Shown one piece after another: positions 2,458 through 28,335 of a stretch of 32,000 bases of DNA; position 1 is the stretch's first letter; each line of letters opens with the position of its first letter. A program made the translations under genes and the position numbers. The notes beneath the pieces are model-generated. The model did not search any database, was not told the origin of the DNA, and was given only the letters and a program-made list of their open reading frames with translations. Location of the stretch: positions 2,610,001-2,642,000 of the forward strand of contig CP060262.1 in assembly GCA_022646745.1 (NCBI GenBank), given 5' to 3'. The DNA is from Planctomycetales bacterium (GTDB lineage: Bacteria; 4484-113; JAFGCY01).

Positions 2458-4470
<2,013 letters not shown>

Positions 4471-4479
4471 GCCGGCAGG

Positions 4480-5532
4480 ATGACTGAATCAGGACGTTTG
4501 GGAACAGTCCCGCTTTCGGCGAGGCTGTTCCCGTTCATTGCACTGCTGCTGCTTGGCTTCTGCCTGGCGATCATCCTGATGCTGGATAGCATGCCTGATC
4601 CTCAGCTGCTGGCGAGTGCAGTGGCTGTTGACATCACCTTGACGCTCAGCCTGGCCTGGTTCCTGATGGTGGCCCGGCCGATGCGCCTGCCCCTTGTCAA
4701 CACACTTGTATTCTTCGTTGCCACAGTGCTTGTGGCGGAATCCCTGTTGCCGGCAGAGGGCCGGGGAGTGCTGGGCTGGATCTCATTGCTGGCAGTACCG
4801 GCGGAGCTGGCCCTCGTTTGGGCGGCGCTCAATTCTGTACGCGGGTTCCTTAAGGCCTTGAGATCGGGAAGGGAAGGGGATGCCAGGCGTCTCGATATGC
4901 TGATGGCATTCCATCAAAGCATGGAAGCGGTGGCAGGTCGCAGTGTGGTCTCCCGCATCCTCGCCAGTGAACTGGCAATGCTGTATTACGCATTCTCGCC
5001 CACCCTGAAGGATGAGGATCTCGTGCTTGGGGATGGGCGGTTCAGCTACAACCGGCTCAATGACTACCAGAGCCTGGTACTGAGCATTTCGATCCTGATG
5101 CTGTTTGAAATGGTGGGCGTGCACCTGCTCGTGCACCACTTCTGGGGAGCCTGGCCAGCCTGGATCATCACCGGACTGAGCTTCTACGGCTTCCTCTGGC
5201 TGCGGGCGGACAGCGTTGCCAGCATCCGCCGGCCGATTGAAGTGCGCGAGGAAGGACTGCTGCTACGTTGTGGCCTGCGCTGGACGGTCGAAGTCCCCTG
5301 GCAGCAGATTGCAGGGATAGAGTTCTTCGATCCGGAGCAGGCTGAACTACCTGCAGGGACACTGCGGATGCTGCTCAATGGAAAGGGCAACTGCCTGCTC
5401 AGGCTGGGCGACGCGGTGAATGTGGAGGGCAGTTACGGCATCCGGCGCCGGGCAAGTGTGCTCTACCTGTCAGTTGATGAGCTGCCCGCATTCTCCGAAT
5501 CCCTCAGCCGTGCCTGTGCAGAGCAGGCTTGA
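4480..5532 (+). CDS. integral membrane protein of unknown function (possible C-terminal bacterial PH-like domain)
   Basis: 350 aa, starting 9 nt after the acs stop. It has several hydrophobic helices at the N-terminus. A further helix pair (SISILMLFEMVGVHLLV / WIITGLSFYGFLWL) is followed by a soluble segment, as in YdbS/YdbT-type proteins. The function call is weak. Confidence 0.55.
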   Translation: MTESGRLGTVPLSARLFPFIALLLLGFCLAIILMLDSMPDPQLLASAVAVDITLTLSLAWFLMVARPMRLPLVNTLVFFVATVLVAESLLPAEGRGVLGWISLLAVPAELALVWAALNSVRGFLKALRSGREGDARRLDMLMAFHQSMEAVAGRSVVSRILASELAMLYYAFSPTLKDEDLVLGDGRFSYNRLNDYQSLVLSISILMLFEMVGVHLLVHHFWGAWPAWIITGLSFYGFLWLRADSVASIRRPIEVREEGLLLRCGLRWTVEVPWQQIAGIEFFDPEQAELPAGTLRMLLNGKGNCLLRLGDAVNVEGSYGIRRRASVLYLSVDELPAFSESLSRACAEQA

Positions 5533-5600
5533 TGCAGGATCGCCGCTGCTAGAATAGCCCCATTCCACCACGCCTGGCGTGGACTGTGACGGAGCAAAAC

Positions 5601-7625
5601 ATGGCAGCCAAGACCCGGCCAATCGGCAAGCAGGACCTCTACAAACTCAGGCAGCTCTACGAATGCCGCCTGTCACCCGATGGCAGCACGCTGGTCAGCA
5701 GCGTCGATTCCATTGATGCGAAGACCAACAAGAAGTACCGGCACCTGTTTGTGCGCCCCAGTGGCAACGGCAGCCTGAAGCAGTTCACCCGCGGTGATCA
5801 GAATGACTATAACCCGCAGTTCTCACCGGATGGCAAGCTGATTGCATTCCTCTCCAGCCGCAAGGGCCGTCCCGGCCTGTGGCTGATCCCGGTGGACGGC
5901 GGTGAAGCCTGGCAGCTGACGGAGCTCAAGGGCAGCATCGGCTCATTTGAATGGTCGCCGGATTCGAAGCAGATCCTGTTCAGCTTCAGCCCGACAGACC
6001 AGGAGCAGATCGAACTGGAGGAGAAGGCCGGCCCGGGTGGCAGGCCCGGCGCGCCGAAGTTCCGCCACATCACGAACTTCTTCTACCGGCTGGACGGCGC
6101 TGGCTGGCTGCCCAAGGGCAAGACCGAGATCCACGTGGTGACCGTTGCCAGCGGCAGCACCAGGAAAATCTTCTCAGACGAGTACCACAACCTGAATCCG
6201 AGCTGGAGCCCGGATGGCCAGCACATCGTGTTCTCCTCGAACAAGAGTGCCAACCCCGAGATCGAGACGGACCGCTCGGACATCTGGGTGCTGCGCGCCG
6301 ACGGCAAGGGCAAGCTGCGCCGCATCGAGACCTACAGCGGCCCCGCTGACAACCCGAGTGTCAGCCCCGACGGCAAGTGGATCGCATTCCGTGGCTGGCC
6401 GGACTGCAGCAAGTCCTGGAGCGAAGGCAACATCCGTATGTTCCTGGTGCCCTTCAAGGGCGGCAAGATCCGCGAACTGGGCGAGGGCCTGGACCGGCCG
6501 GTTGACAACCTGTCCATCAACGACACCTGGGGCCTGATGGGTTCGCGCAAGCCGCTGTGGTCTCCGGATGGCACTGCGATCTACAACGTGGTGACCACCG
6601 ATGCCAACACGGAGGTCTACCGCTTCGACATTGCCGACGGAACGGCCGCCCCGGTGTTCAGTGAGCCCGGTGTCGTGCTGGACTTCGACATCGACTTCAG
6701 CCGGGGCAAGCTCTATGCCGCCTTCAGTGAGATCGTCAACCCCGGGGACCTGATCAGTGCCAACCTCGGCGGTGGCAACATGAAGAGCCTGAGCAGCGTG
6801 AACTCCGCCTGGCTGAACCGCCGCGACATCGGCGAGATTACCGAGATGTGGGTCAAGGGCCGCGATGGCAACAGGGTGCATGGCTGGGTGCTGACCCCGC
6901 CGGACTACGACGGCCGCAAGAAGTATCCGGCGATCCTCTACATCCACGGTGGTCCGCATGTGGCCTTCGGGCGCAGCATCATGCATGAGTTCCATTACCT
7001 CAGCGGCCTTGGCTACGTGGTGTTCTTCTGCAACCCGCGCGGCAGCCATGGCTACGGTGAGGCGCATGTCAGTGCGATCTCGCGTGCCTGGGGTGACAAC
7101 GACTACAGCGACTGCATGAAGTTCACCGATGCCGTGCTCCGCAAGTTCACCAACATCGACAAGGAACGTGTCGGAGTGACCGGCGGCAGTTACGGCGGCT
7201 ACATGACCAACTGGATCATCGGCCATACCAAGCGATTCAAGGCCGCCGTGACCCAGCGTTGTGTTTCCAACTTCCTCAGCTTCCACGGCTCCAGCGATGT
7301 CGGCTTCCTGTTCCACCATGTGTTCGGTAAGGATGCCAAGACACCCTGGGAGGACAAGGAGCGCTTCCTGGCGATGAGCCCGATGACCTACATCCCGAAG
7401 GCGACAACACCGACGCTTGTGGTCCACAGCGAAAACGACCTGCGCTGCCCGATCGAGCAGGGTGAGCAGGTATATGTGCAGCTCAAGCTGCAGGGTGTGG
7501 AAACTGAGTTCGTGCGCTTCCCCGAGGAAAGCCATGGGCTGAGCCGCGGTGGACGCACGGATCGTCGTATAGAGCGCCTGGAGCGCATCAGCGGCTGGTT
7601 CGACCGTTACCTGAAGAAGGCCTGA
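5601..7625 (+). CDS. S9 family serine peptidase (prolyl oligopeptidase / acylaminoacyl-peptidase type) with an N-terminal beta-propeller
   Basis: The nucleophile elbow is GGSYGGYM, followed by ENDLRCP (Asp) and EESHGL (His). The propeller half has recurring [FWV]SPDG[KSQT] blades. I prefer the ATG at 5601 (GGAG 6 nt upstream) over the GTG at 5586 given in the ORF track. Confidence 0.9.
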   Translation: MAAKTRPIGKQDLYKLRQLYECRLSPDGSTLVSSVDSIDAKTNKKYRHLFVRPSGNGSLKQFTRGDQNDYNPQFSPDGKLIAFLSSRKGRPGLWLIPVDGGEAWQLTELKGSIGSFEWSPDSKQILFSFSPTDQEQIELEEKAGPGGRPGAPKFRHITNFFYRLDGAGWLPKGKTEIHVVTVASGSTRKIFSDEYHNLNPSWSPDGQHIVFSSNKSANPEIETDRSDIWVLRADGKGKLRRIETYSGPADNPSVSPDGKWIAFRGWPDCSKSWSEGNIRMFLVPFKGGKIRELGEGLDRPVDNLSINDTWGLMGSRKPLWSPDGTAIYNVVTTDANTEVYRFDIADGTAAPVFSEPGVVLDFDIDFSRGKLYAAFSEIVNPGDLISANLGGGNMKSLSSVNSAWLNRRDIGEITEMWVKGRDGNRVHGWVLTPPDYDGRKKYPAILYIHGGPHVAFGRSIMHEFHYLSGLGYVVFFCNPRGSHGYGEAHVSAISRAWGDNDYSDCMKFTDAVLRKFTNIDKERVGVTGGSYGGYMTNWIIGHTKRFKAAVTQRCVSNFLSFHGSSDVGFLFHHVFGKDAKTPWEDKERFLAMSPMTYIPKATTPTLVVHSENDLRCPIEQGEQVYVQLKLQGVETEFVRFPEESHGLSRGGRTDRRIERLERISGWFDRYLKKA

Positions 7626-7660
7626 CCTTGGATCAGATACACGGGAGGTATGATTCGCCC

Positions 7661-8032
7661 ATGAGCGATCTGCCTCCCGTGATTGATCCCCTTGAAAAGC
7701 AGCAGTACCTGCAGGGCGACTGGTATCCGGCCCTGCTTGGACAGGTGAATGACACTGCAATCAAGCTGGCGCGTATCCACGGGGAGTTTGTCTGGCATTC
7801 GCACGCCGAGGAGGATGAGCTGTTCCTCGTCGTCAAGGGGCGGATGCGACTGGAGTTCCGCAATGGGGTACGGGAGCTGGAGGCGGGACAGATGATCATC
7901 GTGCCGCGTGGCCTGGAGCACCGTCCGGTGTCTGAAGAGGAGTGCCTGATCCTGCTGGTTGAGCCTGTCAGCACCGTGAACACAGGTGACGCTGAAAGCG
8001 ATATGCGGCGGGAGCAGTTGCCAGAGCTGTGA
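7661..8032 (+). CDS. cupin domain protein
   Basis: A small beta-barrel pattern: FVWHSHAEEDELFLVVKGRMRLEF ... GQMIIVPRGLEHRP, which reads as cupin motifs 1 and 2. The ATG at 7661 lies downstream of GGGAGG. The ORF track's TTG at 7628 is an alternative start. Confidence 0.7.
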   Translation: MSDLPPVIDPLEKQQYLQGDWYPALLGQVNDTAIKLARIHGEFVWHSHAEEDELFLVVKGRMRLEFRNGVRELEAGQMIIVPRGLEHRPVSEEECLILLVEPVSTVNTGDAESDMRREQLPEL

Positions 8033-8096
8033 GTAAGTTACGAATTGAATACGTATGTAAAATCTAGATGAACTTTCTCAGGATTGGAAATGAGAA

Positions 8097-8125
8097 TTCA
8101 CCATCTACTTACATTTGTGTACAAT
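8097..8125 (+). promoter_or_regulatory. candidate sigma70-like promoter for the 8159 gene (TTCACC-17 nt-TACAAT)
   Basis: Hexamers at 8097-8102 and 8120-8125 have 17-nt spacing and sit in an AT-rich intergenic region about 35 nt upstream of the ATG. This is pattern matching only. Confidence 0.3.
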
Positions 8126-8158
8126 CGACTTGAATCTGCCCCCTGAATCAGGTGTGAA

Positions 8159-10687
8159 ATGACTAAAAATAGCAGGCTGCTCTCAGCTTTAATCATCCTT
8201 TTGATTGCAGGTGTAATCGGTTCCTGCGTGAATCGTGTCCCGGTACTTTCTACCCAGGAACAGCCAGCGACAGAGCAGCTTGATGAAACACAGTTTCCTG
8301 ATAATGCAGATCAAGAACCTCTGAGTCCTGTTGATAAGCTTGAGTTGCCCGGGATACCAGCTGGTCAGACTGAGCAGTCAAGCTCCAAGCGAAGCAGTGC
8401 CAGCACTATAACCCTTGATGGCAAAGCGCGGGTAAACGCTGCGGGCTCCAATAATCGTGTTTCAGGTAGCAGCTATGTGCTAGCAGCTGATGCTGAGCAG
8501 CAGACGGCCTGGGCCTGGTACACCCTTGGGGGTCTTTCGATTGACAGACCAGTGAACCTGAACGTCAACGTGGCTCCTGCAGCCATTTTACCCGGGGGCG
8601 AAGAACAGCCTGTTTCCTACTACGTCGGTGTAAGCAACTACAGCACTTACCGCTGGCAGTGGTTTGGTCCCTTCGATGCTTCAACGGAGATAGTGCTCAA
8701 TTCCGACGCTAACAGGGAGCGCTATGTCAGTGGAATCGACGTTCCACAGATGCATGCCGTGATCCTGAGCAGTTCCGAGGCCGGCACTGCCCTGCAGATT
8801 GATTCTCTGGAAGTGGAACTGAAGCAGGGATTTAAGTCGACAGGGTATCAAACTACACGTCCAATTAAGATGCAAGCACAAGCCAGCAATACATTGGGCG
8901 ACAAGTCTGCTTCTTCTCTATCAAAAGAACATTACATTACTCTCACGTGGAATTTTATTCCAGATCCTCTTGCACCGGAGAATGAAGCAACTACGGTAAG
9001 GGTAAATCGCCGGCTTGTCGGCGATTCAGTGTGGCAGCCGATAGGAGATGCTAAACTGGGACCAATTAGTGAGCAATATATTGATTTTGCGGATAATGCA
9101 CAGCCTTTTGAAGGCACAGCCGGGCGAACTTACGAATACTTCCTTGGCTTCTTTAATATTGGTGGTTATAATTCAAGCGGAATTATTAGTGAACAGATTC
9201 CCCTTCTACAGCCTCACAATCTTATCGCTACACCTAGTGGAAACCCACATCAGATAACACTAACTTGGGAAAAGTCATCCGACGCTACATCATACGAAAT
9301 TTTTCGTGATACTATTGGGCAACCTTACGCTGTAGTAGGTGATGTGGATTCATATGTGGATGAACAGTGCGGAAATATTCCGCACGAATACTGGGTGAAG
9401 TCCAAAAATGAGTGGAGCGAATCAGCTTTGGATATCTCTGCCATAGGAATTGCAGTTAATTTGAGCAACTATAACTTAAGTACGAACAATAGTTTGTGGC
9501 CACTCTCTTATAGGGTTCACCCTGATGGGAGTTTTGCAATCCTTGTGCAAAGTGATAATTACAGTATTTACAAATCGACCACAACAATACCAATAAGTGC
9601 TGAGGATTGGATTGAGATACCGATTATTCCTAATTCGCAAGGGGAAAACAGAATAGAACCTTTCAATTTTCAAATTGATGACAATGGAATATATCACATA
9701 TGTGCCGTAAAAACATACACAATGGTCCAGGAACCTCCATTGCCCAATCTTAACAAGTTCGAATTATATTATGGCAGATCAATCAACGACAATCCTCTAT
9801 CTGTCGAAGACTGGGAATTTACTGCGGTGGACATTAGTGATGAATTTGAGGAATCGTCGCTTAAAAACCAATTGTATCCAAGTATCACTTTTTGTTGTGG
9901 AGTTCCGCAAATCATGTATTATGAAATCACGCCAAGTTATGAAGCAGTTGATGTAGTTAGATATGCCATTTCTAATGTATATTATCCTCAAAATGAAGAA
10001 GATTGGTCTTTATTCGACTTGACGGAAGAATTTACCAGAGTTCGCCTCCCATTTAACATGGAGGATTTACTGGTTACTGCACTAGATAAGCCGGCTGCCG
10101 TAGTAACCGGATTAGATGCTAATGGTGATTGGAGATTTAGCTATCTGCGTGGTGCAAATCAGAATCCACAGGATCAGACAGAGTGGGAAATTGTGAAAGG
10201 TCCTGTAATGAAAGAAATTAACAATACATTTAGTATCGCAAACATTAATGGCAACGCTGTATGTTCAAGTGGGCAGGTGAGCTTACTGAATGAGAATCCT
10301 ACCGCGCTAATGGAGATAGCCATTGGATTCGACCAGATTAATAGCAGTTCCTGGTTTCACGAAGTGATCTATCCTGCACCAACTCAATCACCTTACGAGT
10401 TTTCACAATGGTTAAGTAAATGGACTGAATTGGATAATTATCAGATAACTAGTTTGATTACACGGACAAATGAGTTAACTCCAACATTCAGAAATAGATT
10501 AATCATCGGAAAGGACGTTACAACATCTGAATCTAGGTGGTGTCAGTCAAACGAGCTGCATACATCAGCTGTTAATGCTGCATTTTGTAAATCTATGACC
10601 CTTATAAACTCCGACGCTATATTAATAGTTACATATGAGTTTAACGATCCGATTCAGACATTAGTAAGTGTCATTGATCTCACTTGA
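8159..10687 (+). CDS. large predicted lipoprotein: shared N-terminal module, two Fn3-like domains, then a low-GC repeat-containing C-terminal half
   Basis: 842 aa with a signal peptide and lipobox (LIAGVIGS|C). Residues about 98-222 are homologous to the N-terminal module of the 19454 gene (YYVGVSNYSTYRWQW versus LYFGIANYATGRWEW). Fn3-like units are marked by ITLTWNF... and ITLTWEKSSDATSYEIFRD. The C-terminal part has foreign-looking AT-rich codon usage. Confidence 0.8.
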   Translation: MTKNSRLLSALIILLIAGVIGSCVNRVPVLSTQEQPATEQLDETQFPDNADQEPLSPVDKLELPGIPAGQTEQSSSKRSSASTITLDGKARVNAAGSNNRVSGSSYVLAADAEQQTAWAWYTLGGLSIDRPVNLNVNVAPAAILPGGEEQPVSYYVGVSNYSTYRWQWFGPFDASTEIVLNSDANRERYVSGIDVPQMHAVILSSSEAGTALQIDSLEVELKQGFKSTGYQTTRPIKMQAQASNTLGDKSASSLSKEHYITLTWNFIPDPLAPENEATTVRVNRRLVGDSVWQPIGDAKLGPISEQYIDFADNAQPFEGTAGRTYEYFLGFFNIGGYNSSGIISEQIPLLQPHNLIATPSGNPHQITLTWEKSSDATSYEIFRDTIGQPYAVVGDVDSYVDEQCGNIPHEYWVKSKNEWSESALDISAIGIAVNLSNYNLSTNNSLWPLSYRVHPDGSFAILVQSDNYSIYKSTTTIPISAEDWIEIPIIPNSQGENRIEPFNFQIDDNGIYHICAVKTYTMVQEPPLPNLNKFELYYGRSINDNPLSVEDWEFTAVDISDEFEESSLKNQLYPSITFCCGVPQIMYYEITPSYEAVDVVRYAISNVYYPQNEEDWSLFDLTEEFTRVRLPFNMEDLLVTALDKPAAVVTGLDANGDWRFSYLRGANQNPQDQTEWEIVKGPVMKEINNTFSIANINGNAVCSSGQVSLLNENPTALMEIAIGFDQINSSSWFHEVIYPAPTQSPYEFSQWLSKWTELDNYQITSLITRTNELTPTFRNRLIIGKDVTTSESRWCQSNELHTSAVNAAFCKSMTLINSDAILIVTYEFNDPIQTLVSVIDLT

Positions 10688-10756
10688 TTTAATGGAAATT
10701 ATCAATAATATAATTAGAATATTAAAATACAAATAAAATTTTCTAAAAGTAGTACT

Positions 10757-10785
10757 TTGCATTAGACCGCGATTCGTTGTACATT
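10757..10785 (+). promoter_or_regulatory. candidate sigma70-like promoter (TTGCAT-17 nt-TACATT) ahead of the cohesin-like/M6 operon
   Basis: Hexamers at 10757-10762 and 10780-10785 have 17-nt spacing and sit at the end of a very AT-rich spacer. This promoter would give a leader of about 160 nt containing two hairpins. Confidence 0.3.
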
Positions 10786-10953
10786 ACTAGTATCAACTAA
10801 TTGAACCCCTGTCTCACACACAGGGGATGGTCCTGAGTGGTAAGGCACCACTTTTGCAGGATCGGCTTCCGATTCCCCTGGTAATTTGCGCGGCGATCTG
10901 CCGCGGCTGGCCAGGGATCGGCGGTTGGGTAACAATCTGGCTTGAGGAGCAGC

Positions 10954-11487
10954 ATGAGGAGAACCGCGGAAGGCGGCTGGACACGCGTCCTTGCCCTTAT
11001 TCTGGCAGTGCTGGCACTGCAGCTTTGTGCTTCGTGCGGCGGTGGTGGCAAATCCGAAGGCGGATCTCAGGCCCAGGAGCAGCGAACTGTTCTTGAGCTC
11101 AGCCTGAACCCCGTCAGCCAGCCGGATGGCACCATCCATGTTGAACTCAGTGCAACAAATGCCGCAAGGCTCTATCAGCTGTCATCGAGGCTAAGCTTCG
11201 ACAGCGCAGCTGTCCGGCCGCTTGGGCCGGCTGTTCCGGGCAACCTTCCGGCACAGGATGCAATCTTCTACAGCAATGACCGGCAGTCCGGATACATCCC
11301 GGTGGCTTTCACCAACACCAAGGCAGCCGCAGTCGGCCAGCAATCCGGCATCCTTTATTCAGTTGAATTCGAGGTGCTGGACGCGGGGCTCGATCCGCGT
11401 TTTGCCCTGGTCACGGACCCGCAGTACCTGATTGCGCGCGACAATAGTGCATCTGACATTGAACTCTCCGTCGAGGTGCAGCGTTGA
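10954..11487 (+). CDS. small lipoprotein with a single cohesin-like beta-sandwich domain
   Basis: The ATG at 10954 has GAGGAG 4 nt upstream; the ORF track's TTG at 10942 is less likely. Signal peptide RVLALILAVLALQLCAS|CGGGG is followed by a Gly/Ser/Gln linker. After that comes about 140 aa with a cohesin-like pattern (GTIHVELSATNAARLYQLSSRLSFDSAAVRPLG ... GYIPVAFTN ... GILYSVEFEVL). The cohesin call rests on pattern resemblance only. Confidence 0.7.
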   Translation: MRRTAEGGWTRVLALILAVLALQLCASCGGGGKSEGGSQAQEQRTVLELSLNPVSQPDGTIHVELSATNAARLYQLSSRLSFDSAAVRPLGPAVPGNLPAQDAIFYSNDRQSGYIPVAFTNTKAAAVGQQSGILYSVEFEVLDAGLDPRFALVTDPQYLIARDNSASDIELSVEVQR

Positions 11488-19453: not shown

Positions 19454-21493
19454 GTGCTGCGTAAGCTCGCATTCGGACACATCACTTTTCTGATCATCAC
19501 AAGCCTGCTGCTACTGGGCATCAACAGCTGCGGATCAGGCCAGGGACAGCTTGAGGGCCAGATTGCAAGCCAGCCCGAAACCACAGACATTTCCCTTGCG
19601 GAATCCACCCAGTCAACCCCGCTGTTCAATATCGGCGGAATCGACGGACTTGACCGGCAGGTCAACTACACCGATGCCGATCGCCTGATTCCCGGCTCGG
19701 ATTTCGCCACGGCATTGCCCAACTCGCGTGTGGTTGCCAGTGGCACTTCAGCTGAGTTCGCTCCTGAATTCGCCCCTGACCTTGATCCGTCCCTGTTGAA
19801 TCCCGCATACTGCGTCTACGTGTTCAACCTGGGTGATTACGATCAGGAGATCCAGCTTGTGTTTGGCGTGTCCGATCCACCGGCGACGGAGGAGGACCTC
19901 TACTTCGGCATCGCCAACTATGCCACTGGCCGCTGGGAATGGCGACAGAGTGACGGCAGCCGCACGCTGTCCCTGACTGAGTACACGAACTACATCAGCC
20001 CCGCCGGCCACATCTTCTTCACCGTGGCTATGACCGGCATTGAGACCGGCAATGTGGATTTCGTCCGGATCGGTACAGGCTTCCCACCCTCGGGATCCCT
20101 GCTGGCGGATGTGACCATCGGCCCCTATCCGCTGACCGTCAACTTCACAGCCAACTTTGTTGATACCGATGGCTACTTCGCGGAGTACCAGTGGGATTTT
20201 GATAACAACGGCGTGATCGATGAGACGACGACCGAGCCGACCCTCGAGCATGTGTTTGAGGTGCCGGGCACTTACATCACACGAGTGCATGCGGTTGACA
20301 ATGACGGGATGGAGGGCACGAACTTCCGCACCATCAACGTCACCGGTGTGCTTCCCCCGAACCCCCCGGAGAATGTCCAGGCAAGCGATGGCACCTATGG
20401 TGGCATCGTGCACATCAGCTGGGATGACCCCAGCAGCGGCATCAACCCTAAGGGCTATGAGATCTTCCGTGCCGATACTGAAAACGGGAGCTATACCTCC
20501 ATCGGTGCGGTCAGCTTCGCCTTCAAGTCCTTTGATGACGATACCGTCTCCGACCAGACCGTCTACTGGTACTACGTCCGCTCCCTGCATGACACCGCCG
20601 GCAACAGCGTCCCGAGCGACTCCGATGACGGCTTCATGGGAATCCTCAACCCGCCCACCGACCTGATCTGCGGGCAGGGACTGCTGCCTGACAAGATCAG
20701 CATCAGTTGGACGCATCCCGTTGATGGCGCGACACCGGAAGGTTACGACATCTTCCGCAGCCAGACCGAAGGCGGCCTCAAGGTCTTCGTTGCCGGGGTT
20801 GACTTCGTCAACTTCTACCAGGACGACTCGGTTCCCGACGGCAAGACCTATTACTACTACATCCAGAGCCGCCGCACCAATTTCAGCAACAGTGACTTCA
20901 GCGAGCCGGCGACCGGATTCGTCTCGCAGCTCCAGACCCCGACAAATGTGGCGGCCAGCGATGATGCCAGCCCGACCATCGTCACCGTGACCTGGACCCA
21001 TAGCGGTGGTTCCCAGGTCCCGGCGGGTTACAACATCTACAAGGCGAATGCCGTTGACGGTTCCTATATCAAGGTCGGCACGGTTGGCTATGAGGAGACC
21101 TGGGATGACGTCGCTGCCACGGACGGGGCGGAGTACTTCTACAAGGTCAGTGCCTACAAGGCCGGCTGGGATGAGTCAGCCCTGAGTGATCCGGATGGTG
21201 GCTATGTCGGTCTCAGTGCACCTCAGTCACTCAACGCCTCGGACGACGAGATTTTCCAGGTGACAGTTACCTGGCTGCCTCCCACGATTGGTCCGGACCC
21301 GGATGACTATGAGATCTTCCGCGCGGACACGATTGATGGAACTTATGTTTCAATCGGTACAACGGTGGACACTGTCTATGTCGATTCCGCTGTCAATGGA
21401 AACCAGGGATACTTCTACTATGCCGTATCCAGGAAGACCGGCTATGTGAACAGCCCGGCATCCAATATTGATGAAGGGTATGCGGCAGACTGA
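19454..21493 (+). CDS. lipoprotein: shared N-terminal module, a PKD domain and four tandem Fn3-like domains
   Basis: GTG start with GGAG upstream; lipobox LLLGINS|CGSG. The N-terminal module is homologous to that of the 8159 product. The PKD unit spans about 20090-20344 (YQWDFDNNG ... GTYITRVHAVDNDG). It is followed by four units of about 95 aa. Confidence 0.85.
   Translation: MLRKLAFGHITFLIITSLLLLGINSCGSGQGQLEGQIASQPETTDISLAESTQSTPLFNIGGIDGLDRQVNYTDADRLIPGSDFATALPNSRVVASGTSAEFAPEFAPDLDPSLLNPAYCVYVFNLGDYDQEIQLVFGVSDPPATEEDLYFGIANYATGRWEWRQSDGSRTLSLTEYTNYISPAGHIFFTVAMTGIETGNVDFVRIGTGFPPSGSLLADVTIGPYPLTVNFTANFVDTDGYFAEYQWDFDNNGVIDETTTEPTLEHVFEVPGTYITRVHAVDNDGMEGTNFRTINVTGVLPPNPPENVQASDGTYGGIVHISWDDPSSGINPKGYEIFRADTENGSYTSIGAVSFAFKSFDDDTVSDQTVYWYYVRSLHDTAGNSVPSDSDDGFMGILNPPTDLICGQGLLPDKISISWTHPVDGATPEGYDIFRSQTEGGLKVFVAGVDFVNFYQDDSVPDGKTYYYYIQSRRTNFSNSDFSEPATGFVSQLQTPTNVAASDDASPTIVTVTWTHSGGSQVPAGYNIYKANAVDGSYIKVGTVGYEETWDDVAATDGAEYFYKVSAYKAGWDESALSDPDGGYVGLSAPQSLNASDDEIFQVTVTWLPPTIGPDPDDYEIFRADTIDGTYVSIGTTVDTVYVDSAVNGNQGYFYYAVSRKTGYVNSPASNIDEGYAAD
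20348..21490 (+). repeat. four tandem Fn3-like coding repeats of about 95 codons
   Basis: Each unit has P.[ND][VL].AS[D] ... [IV].[IV][ST]W ... GY[EDN]I[FY][RK] ... Y[FWY]YY[VI] ... S..D.G[FY]. The units are diverged at the DNA level, so this is not a recent duplication. Confidence 0.8.
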
Positions 21494-28248: not shown

Positions 28249-28335
28249 GGAGAGGTGACCGAGTGGTTTAAGGTGCTCGCCTGGAAAGCGGGTGTACGGT
28301 AATACGTACCGAGGGTTCGAATCCCTCCCTCTCCG
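28249..28335 (+). tRNA. tRNA-Ser (anticodon GGA), class II with a long variable arm; no encoded CCA
   Basis: Hand-folded. The acceptor stem is GGAGAGG/CCTCTCC with discriminator G. The anticodon stem is CTCGC/GCGGG with loop CTGGAAA. The variable arm is GTACG-GTAATA-CGTAC. The T arm is GAGGG-TTCGAAT-CCCTC. Confidence 0.9.

Follow-up and report, generated by a model that had tools for sequence, protein, structure and literature searches.

The AT-rich lipoprotein gene at 8159–10687 of the window (the whole stretch of 32 000 nucleotides analysed here) is, with moderate confidence, a species-specific single-gene islet: an accessory gene that arrived recently from within the lineage's own gene pool, out of a part of it that is AT-rich. 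From end to end its composition is foreign to the 61% GC genome, yet the domain families of its product (P0001) are all typical of the host phylum. This AT-rich DNA encodes families restricted to the phylum of the host, itself little known; the low GC is here no sign of a distant donor and suggests instead that the lineage contains an AT-rich reservoir or that the gene decayed towards AT within it. We infer that the event was a gain and not a loss and that an AT-rich reservoir was the source. The features of the locus are as follows.

8033–8158, + strand: upstream non-coding stretch, AT-rich (GC 0.365).
8097–8125, + strand: promoter-like site TTCACC-17-TACAAT, read from the sequence.
8150–8154, + strand: Shine–Dalgarno-like site AGGTG, read from the sequence.
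8159–10687, + strand: lipoprotein gene (P0001), 842 amino acids, intact, the only gene of the islet.
8159–8425, + strand: signal peptide and lipobox followed by a Q/E/P/S-rich linker (residues 24–89), from the translation.
8426–8845, + strand: N-module (residues 90–229), a β-sandwich with the motif YYVGVSNYSTYRWQWFGP; GC 0.555, GC3 ∼0.6.
8846–9448, + strand: linker and two Fn3-like domains (residues 230–430); GC3 0.27–0.43, 51–59% identity to the metagenomic protein P0005.
9449–10684, + strand: C-terminal DW repeat domain (residues 431–842), about six units of 56–68 residues with a motif of the P-x4-(D/E)-W type.
10688–10770, no strand: AT-rich spacer (GC 0.19); from ∼10735 native intergenic DNA common to G002.
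10771–10792, + strand: 22-nt motif GATTCGTTGTACATTACTAGTA, conserved in G001 and G002, ahead of the cohesin-like/M6 protease operon.

The islet runs from about 8014/8160 to about 10735/10770, with a cupin gene to its left and the cohesin-like/M6 protease operon to its right. Its flanks align with those of the two other species of the genus (84–85% nucleotide identity to G001 and 71–74% to G002), and BLAST homology to G001 ends at 8013; the motif GATTCGTTGTACATTACTAGTA marks the native flank on the right. Between the conserved flanks there are 186 nt in G001, 270 nt in G002 and 2859 nt in the window. A preliminary description of this DNA had proposed comparing the presence of the segment in related genomes; it is the whole gene, head included, that is missing from both G001 and G002. 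The locus shares with small strain- or species-specific genomic islets an empty site between conserved flanks in sister genomes, and resembles them also in its low GC and codon usage and in its single cargo gene for a surface protein. It differs from them in that no mobility signature is present: there is no integrase or transposase in the neighbourhood, no tRNA target at the islet (the only tRNA is at 28249) and no flanking repeat beyond chance, as had already been remarked. TGTACA, considered as a shared promoter motif, is not enriched in non-coding DNA, and a search of this genome for H-NS or Lsr2 silencers of AT-rich DNA found none.

The preliminary description had reported a sharp fall in GC within one open reading frame, and the fall is real, from 0.54–0.56 to 0.39. 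By segment, GC is 0.54 at 8221–8820, 0.44 at 8821–9240 and 0.388 at 9241–10687, with 0.615 and 0.587 in the flanking genes. The 60-nt lines on which that report was based were counted exactly (0.283 at 9661, 0.317 at 10441, 0.30 at 10621 and 0.133 in the spacer at 10681–10740), but they were low ones, and the tail said to have about 30% GC has a mean of 39%. A maximum-likelihood changepoint in GC3 lies at nt 8846 (0.53 to 0.34, LLR 12.4, 2-lnL support 8786–8918); none of 5000 codon permutations reached this LLR, by which chance fluctuation is rejected. Amino-acid bias, which had been held out as an alternative, is rejected as the sole cause since the shift sits in GC3; the amino-acid-driven GC1 shifts later, at ∼nt 9389. 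The frame remains open across the transition, again as described: the AT-rich part has no stops in 613 codons, compared with 30–65 in the other five frames (the probability of an open frame by chance is ∼7e-19), and the frame is therefore under selection. What is observed is an abrupt change at synonymous sites inside an open frame, as in a mosaic gene.

Composition and codon usage deviate from those of the host on both sides of the changepoint. Segment GC3 values across the gene are 0.34–0.59, while the host (GC 0.61) has a median ORF GC3 of 0.79 and a 5th percentile of 0.59; 'near host GC' was thus an overstatement for the N-terminal third, in which codons 1–89 are themselves AT-rich (GC3 0.38–0.42) and a second compositional edge falls near codon 90. 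Codon-usage scores are −0.35 to −0.69 in three of the four segments (residues 1–89 and 230–842; residues 1–89 score −0.35, islet-like), and the N-module is intermediate at +0.03, compared with +0.57 ± 0.19 for host pieces. Because codons 1–89 are also AT-rich, the pattern is that of an intermediate-GC patch at ∼8426–8845 within an AT-rich islet.

Such a pattern could have trivial explanations, namely a chimeric join in the assembly, amino-acid composition by itself or chance; the genome is derived from a metagenome, and the ends of one further scaffold (L030) do not match it. L030 resembles G001 at its left end and carries the islet in its middle, and may be either a recombinant between species or a chimera. 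Against this, L030 is identical over 6816–11019, and L029 (window 6153–11022) and L031 (7672–10778), both from other samples, are 99.98–100% identical across the junctions that they cover; in all three the gene lies in the same context and its protein is identical to P0001. Sequence records containing the gene include run SRR7638773 and assemblies ERZ27309125 and ERZ28655859. Across the changepoint the gene stays in frame and colinear with P0005, and both the GC3 shift and the permutations argue against composition or chance. At the sequence level an assembly chimera is ruled out by the three other assemblies and the P0005 colinearity, and we give the trivial explanations as a group a negligible probability.

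The gene had been taken for a mosaic in which a native, vertically inherited lipoprotein N-terminus is fused in frame to a foreign C-terminal two thirds. The compositional switch at synonymous sites is borne out; the division into native head and foreign tail is not supported. The changepoint at nt 8846 coincides with the end of the N-module, a domain boundary, and the genome has many members of the N-module family (56 paralogues, or 57 copies with that of P0001). The higher-GC part does coincide with a module that has a paralogue in the window, as had been noticed: a profile built without P0001 matches residues 84–214 of the product of the gene at 19454 (E = 1e-16). There is also a parallel gene at 2002180–2004819, absent from G002, with a GC-rich head that has 86–87% nucleotide copies in G001 and an AT-rich tail that is unique. 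The head of P0001, however, is absent from the locus in both sister genomes and has no close copy elsewhere in them, it has, at 0.59, the lowest GC3 among the 57 modules (the paralogous modules range over 0.63–0.93) and codons 1–89 are AT-rich. On either side of the changepoint P0005 is colinear and matches equally well, and the tail belongs to a family found phylum-wide, with 22 matches in this genome, and is not alien to the lineage. The native head is already contradicted and the fusion as a whole is improbable. The alternative that had been offered, a foreign island partly homogenized, comes closer to the evidence than the native head does, but no donor tract was found for the homogenization.

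Under the preferred reading, an acquired AT-rich islet, the N-module remains the exception to be accounted for. Its GC3 is even over the patch (0.55–0.65, with no tracts at 0.8), and the ∼420-nt patch, which is exactly the N-module, is perhaps a tract of its own, brought in by recombination with a GC-richer homologue. A nucleotide-level search for the donor tract in this genome and its relatives gave only a 58-nt match of 79% at the conserved motif. Gene conversion from a paralogue within the genome was rejected, as identities there are at most ∼31% and this motif is the sole nucleotide match; a closer native donor inside the family was rejected as well, the best identity (40–45%) being lower than the 51% of P0005. 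A Tajima relative-rate test weakly favours a separate origin of the patch: in the N-module only, homologues from the same family lie closer to P0001 than to P0005 (χ2 4.3–4.6, a marginal value from very thin sampling), and in the Fn3 part the two proteins are equidistant from these homologues. An AlphaFold2 model of the N-module is a 10-strand β-sandwich (pLDDT 84.6, pTM 0.81). Foldseek relates it to sandwiches like those of carbohydrate-binding modules (TM 0.4–0.55, E = 2e-4), which the model would thus resemble; they include TmCBM61 (PDB entry 2xon) and the carbohydrate-binding module of a mannanase (PDB entry 1wky). The N-module differs from these two in its 9–16% sequence identity, its modest TM scores and its lack of any family match in a Pfam search.

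The lipobox LIAGVIGS-C23 (MTKNSRLLSALIILLIAGVIGS-C23), read directly from the translation, closes the N-terminal signal peptide; with the invariant cysteine, these are the marks of a signal peptidase II substrate, and P0001 is a predicted lipoprotein. The linker that follows is disordered, and beyond it come the β-sandwich N-module, two Fn3-like spacers and the DW repeat domain. P0001 appears to be a surface lipoprotein that is intact and kept by purifying selection; its role would be that of a non-enzymatic binding protein. For the Fn3-like part, a four-sequence profile matches the PDB Fn3-like chain 3mpc_A (E = 5.7e-5) and BLASTP aligns residues 308–430 to Fn3 repeats of P0002 and residues 322–422 to those of P0009; P0001 was not reported by the Pfam fn3 profile. 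In the DW domain, P-x4-[DE]W motifs start at residues 478, 546, 610 and 670, and the translation shows two further, degenerate W-containing units near residues 732 and 793. No sequence in Pfam or the PDB matched this domain, and word-index protein searches with the tail returned nothing beyond the query and Fn3 proteins. The full-length model is all-β with an unusable pLDDT of 36; the DW fold is probably a β-propeller.

A DW-domain profile has matches in 19 of the 22 genomes of the phylum. As the family of the AT-rich tail spans the phylum, the DNA is not from an unrelated lineage. The tail of P0001 is strongly diverged: its GC3 is 0.34, compared with 0.58–0.88 in the DW paralogues of this genome, and its amino-acid make-up is AT-shifted (FYMINK/GARP fractions of 0.31/0.17, compared with 0.19/0.25 in P0005). 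The DW tree places P0001 as the sister of P0005, on a branch of 3.63 compared with 1.89 for P0005; on this tree the tail of P0001 is orthologous to that of P0005 and fast-evolving. The AT effect is confined to synonymous sites in the Fn3 part and extends to amino acids in the DW domain. AT pressure within one gene scales with constraint, and the N-module is an unexplained exception.

P0005 (825 amino acids, from a metagenome) is the only close homologue among ∼5.8 and 1.8 billion proteins. It is colinear with P0001 and 51–59% identical to it over residues 90–430, a range that spans the GC3 changepoint, while its own GC3 is 0.64–0.77 throughout. Homology searches by segment, a check that had been proposed, gave P0005 as the nearest for every one of the three compositional segments, head included; because all three share this relative, the phylogeny does not demonstrate mosaicism. 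Mosaic genes formed by recombination of diverged homologues, such as those for polymorphic surface proteins and toxins, are matched here by the sharp synonymous breakpoint at a domain boundary, the preserved frame, the far more diverged C-terminal domain and the occurrence in this genome of other genes with GC-rich heads and AT-rich tails. They are not matched in that no donor tract and, in very thin sampling, no phylogenetic incongruence was detected, one nearest homologue serves all segments and the DW domain groups with that of P0005. Synonymous sites between P0001 and P0005 are saturated everywhere, so that the segments cannot be dated by them.

Among the same-family genomes searched there is no copy with more than 45% identity, and the closest proteins (34–45%) have no DW domain; scans of metagenomes and species genomes for closer homologues gave distant matches only. 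The sampled relatives all have 54–67% GC, with no AT-rich one among them, and a viral carrier was rejected as both scans of viral contigs were empty. Neither an identifiable donor nor a closer homologue outside the lineage, such as would mark a genomic islet, thus emerged from these searches.

The contig of P0005 has 63% GC and its genes resemble those of this genome at 43–58% amino-acid identity. The divergence between P0001 and P0005 is similar to that of these neighbouring, orthologue-like genes, and is therefore also compatible with old vertical descent. On such a view the gene would be ancestral at the locus and deleted in the other species, having become AT-rich in situ by escape from the force that keeps GC high (selection or GC-biased gene conversion) under a GC-to-AT mutation bias, with the N-module kept GC-richer by occasional recombination. 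Both a GC-to-AT bias of mutation and the hypothesis of gene conversion are well established (PMC2936529, PMC4450053), and the N-module and DW families are native to the phylum. In a local alignment the G001 spacer shares TGAAT.A.GGTGTGAAAT with window positions 8144–8160, 17 nt that reach the start codon; G001 perhaps still has the Shine–Dalgarno region as far as the ATG, as would be expected if the gene had been deleted there. This match is marginal, however (one in 300 shuffles scored as high), and loss would be required in both G001 and G002. The weak resemblance of the same-family homologues and the lack of a DW domain in the closest also count against an ancestral gene, as do the ∼30% identity of the in-genome paralogues, too diverged for homologous conversion, and the absence of conversion tracts. 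The 56 other N-modules and ∼21 DW matches of the genome, moreover, remain GC-rich. We consider descent from an ancestral gene at the locus unlikely, though it retains some weight. It is quite unlikely that the gene is lineage-native and not foreign, has slid to a mutational equilibrium of ∼35% GC and has one domain part-GC-rich through recombination with homologues; if this run-down from the force holding the genome at 61% GC were true, nature would have run, inside a single gene, an experiment on how bacteria maintain high GC.

In the acquisition that we favour, the gene would have been long resident in an AT-rich part of the lineage's flexible gene pool, an AT-rich relative and a mobile replicon being the candidates. 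Its synonymous sites would have equilibrated there at a GC3 of ∼0.3, with the least constrained domain (DW) shifting in amino acids as well. Recombination at an intergenic site may then have brought it into this species in recent times, with no mobility genes detected, and the N-module patch would have come separately, by recombination with a GC-richer homologue. Small genomic islets otherwise differ from this one in two respects: here the cargo families are restricted to the host's own phylum, and an internal patch of intermediate GC is exactly one protein domain. Many lipoproteins of the host are built from the N-module (57 copies) and the DW domain (found in 19 of 22 phylum genomes), both of them large families without a Pfam match. 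There are about 30 low-GC islets elsewhere in the genome, and the present one merely adds a further AT-rich accessory gene to a GC-rich background; in this respect it is ordinary.

The P0001 gene is an accessory lipoprotein gene built from lineage-typical families; it lies alone on an AT-rich islet between a cupin gene and the cohesin-like/M6 protease operon, with one intermediate-GC patch over one domain. A single ORF, 8159–10687 on the forward strand (842 residues), spans the GC drop. In 300-nt windows, GC is 0.55–0.65 in the flanking genes, 0.48–0.55 across 8101–9000, 0.37–0.44 across 9001–10500 and 0.32 at 10501–10800, returning to 0.60 from 10801. The best single GC3 changepoint is at nt 8846 (support 8786–8918; GC3 0.53 to 0.34, LLR 12.4), and this LLR was reached by none of 5000 permutations, confirming the drop inside one open frame that the preliminary description reported. 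Its GC counts for individual lines were exact on recount, but the tail that it put at about 30% GC has a mean of 0.39. The compositional change is at synonymous positions. GC1, which tracks amino-acid content, shifts later, near nt 9389, and the gene therefore has two distinct boundaries.

Segments of the P0001 gene (+ strand), with synonymous codon-usage score per codon (host genes scored against 25 pooled low-GC ORFs; host pieces +0.57 ± 0.19, islet pieces −0.63 ± 0.19)
Codons 1–89: signal peptide with lipobox (Cys23), then a Q/E/P/S-rich linker; −0.35
Codons 90–229 (8426–8845): N-module, a β-sandwich in the predicted model; +0.03
Codons 230–430: linker and two Fn3-like domains; −0.57
Codons 431–842: C-terminal DW domain, about six repeats of 56–68 residues each with P-x4-(D/E)-W; −0.69

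The genome (G000) is a single 4.11-Mb contig (C1) of 61% GC, with a median GC3 of 0.79 and a 5th percentile of 0.59 over 2066 long ORFs. Codons 90–229 score outside the host and islet reference distributions alike. The gene is thus AT-rich with a single patch of ∼420 nt of intermediate GC, and no part of it is host-like. GC3 is even within the patch (0.55–0.65), which coincides exactly with the N-module. This module has 56 more copies in G000, with GC3 values of 0.63–0.93; the P0001 copy is the lowest of the 57 at 0.59 and codons 1–89 score −0.35, so the native, host-like head proposed earlier is not supported.

About 30 low-GC stretches are found in G000, and several other ORFs have an internal GC3 change. 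An 879-residue lipoprotein gene at C1:2002180–2004819 (locus L027, 1681–4320) falls from a GC3 of 0.66 to 0.37 at codon 612. It is wholly absent from G002, one of the other two species of the genus, where the conserved flanks lie 185 nt apart. Copies of its GC-rich first 1.2 kb, at 86–87% nucleotide identity, occur at two other loci in the remaining species, G001; the AT-rich tail matches nothing. With the further ORFs, this gene shows that within-gene GC switches recur in G000 at synonymous sites, and amino-acid bias, suggested earlier as a possible cause of such a drop, is therefore not what the switch reflects. Near-twin proteins of ∼2170 residues (C1:3319303–3325863 and 3809502–3815990) fall to GC3 0.38–0.44 in their last ∼340 codons, an 882-residue lipoprotein (1355746–1358394) has GC3 0.34 in its first 266 codons and a 1120-residue ORF (1102938–1106300) has GC3 0.33 in its last ∼480; these patterns suggest swappable end modules.

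Among billions of proteins, searched both exhaustively and by index, a single close relative emerged, P0005 (825 residues), encoded on a 50-kb metagenomic contig of 63% GC whose neighbouring genes show 43–58% amino-acid identity to G000 genes. P0005 is colinear with P0001 and has a GC3 of 0.64–0.77 over its full length. Identity is 51% in the N-module, 59% in the first Fn3 domain and 51% in the second, and similarity is therefore steady across the GC3 changepoint; it collapses at the GC1 boundary, to 20–27% in the DW domain. Pairs of native paralogues conserve the DW domain at least as well as the N-module, so this collapse is specific to the P0001 gene. The two DW domains are sisters in the tree (SH-aLRT 91), although long-branch attraction is possible; the P0001 branch is 3.63 versus 1.89 for P0005, and the amino-acid make-up of P0001 is deviant (FYMINK/GARP fractions of 0.31/0.17, versus 0.19/0.25 in P0005). 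The pattern fits one gene under AT pressure, which would have altered silent sites alone in the constrained parts and the protein as well in the least constrained domain. On its contig (L013, region 4131–7950), the P0005 gene adjoins genes for an S8 peptidase and a 352-residue protein; their homologues are also adjacent in G000 (C1:1451442–1454876), where tblastn found no P0005-like gene nearby. The neighbourhood of the family member thus differs between the two organisms.

By composition the gene is a mosaic, with edges near codons 90 and 229; phylogeny does not confirm this. The separate relatives expected for head and tail were not found, P0005 being nearest for all segments. Synonymous sites are saturated everywhere between P0001 and P0005, and no donor tract for the patch was found in G000 or its relatives. 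One weak sign comes from the N-module alone, where the same-family homologues lie closer to P0001 than to P0005 (5–6 unique changes on the P0001 branch and 14–16 on that of P0005; χ2 4.3–4.6); over the Fn3 part they are equally far from both. Overall, the earlier interpretation is partly supported.

In the left flank, the genes for the S9 peptidase and the cupin align to both sister-species genomes at 84–85% and 74% nucleotide identity; in the right flank, the cohesin-like gene and the M6 protease operon do so at 71–74%. In place of 8014–10872, G001 has 186 nt and G002 270 nt; the whole gene is missing, including the head that had been taken as native against a foreign tail. Local alignment puts the right edge of native DNA at ∼10735 (versus G002) or at 10771 (versus G001), the start of a conserved 22-nt motif. 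On the left, a 17-nt match equalled by one in 300 shuffles hints at G001 homology up to 8160, at the start codon. The motif, GATTCGTTGTACATTAYTRGTA (10771–10792), lies upstream of the cohesin-like/M6 protease operon and is kept in all three species; in G002 another copy, degenerate, lies some 60 nt farther upstream. Genome-wide, non-coding DNA shows no enrichment of TTGTACA. Re-examination around the islet again gave no integrase, transposase or flanking repeats, and no tRNA. In G007, from another genus of the family, a different protease gene occupies the slot: a 1163-residue gene (L011, contig C13, 3657–7148), flanked by the S9 peptidase gene and the cohesin/M6 block, stands in place of the cupin and P0001-type lipoprotein genes, and its product reads as a putative tricorn/S41-like protease.

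We favour gain of the gene in this species, because both sister species lack it, because no homologue above 34–45% identity turned up in the same-family genomes searched (the closest lacking the DW domain) and because the four assemblies hardly vary. Had the gene been present since the species diverged, it would be expected to have ameliorated toward host GC, and by this general reasoning the lack of such drift also points to gain. The gene may instead have been lost in the sister species: a ribosome-binding region may persist in G001, and the P0001–P0005 distance is within the range of other gene pairs. No AT-rich source turned up: the sampled relatives all have 54–67% GC, and two scans of viral contigs found nothing P0001-like.

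The identical protein, again encoded downstream of the cupin gene, recurs on three additional contigs from other samples, one with a single-base difference across 6153–11022 and two identical across 7672–10778 and 6816–11019. The frame has no stops in 613 AT-rich codons, versus 30–65 in the other five frames; at the level of assembled sequence, this and the contigs together rule out an assembly artefact. The last of these contigs, scaffold L030 (ENA ERZ28655859 scaffold_8769), has ends that differ: its left 115 nt (1–115) are 96.8% like the S9 peptidase gene of G001 but match the window at only about 80%, and its right 90 nt (4321–4410) match nothing in G000–G002. It is either a strain that has the islet via inter-species recombination or a chimeric scaffold.

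The AlphaFold2 model of the N-module (33 in-genome paralogues as input; pLDDT 84.6) is a β-sandwich, and its top Foldseek matches are carbohydrate-binding-module-like sandwiches (E = 2e-4, TM 0.4–0.55), a likeness in fold only. A propeller is a guess for the DW domain, because sequence searches of Pfam and PDB gave nothing for it and the full-length model has a pLDDT of 36. A profile search found the DW domain in 19 of the 22 phylum genomes searched, with 22 matches in G000, where its paralogues have GC3 0.58–0.88 versus 0.34 in P0001. Given this and the N-module copies in G000, both ends of P0001 belong to lineage-typical families. The N-module (57 copies) and the DW domain form two large families without a Pfam match, and lipoproteins of ∼550 residues consist of these two alone, for example at C1:2362721–2364376, 2344344–2346008, 2489739–2491403 and 424676–426289.
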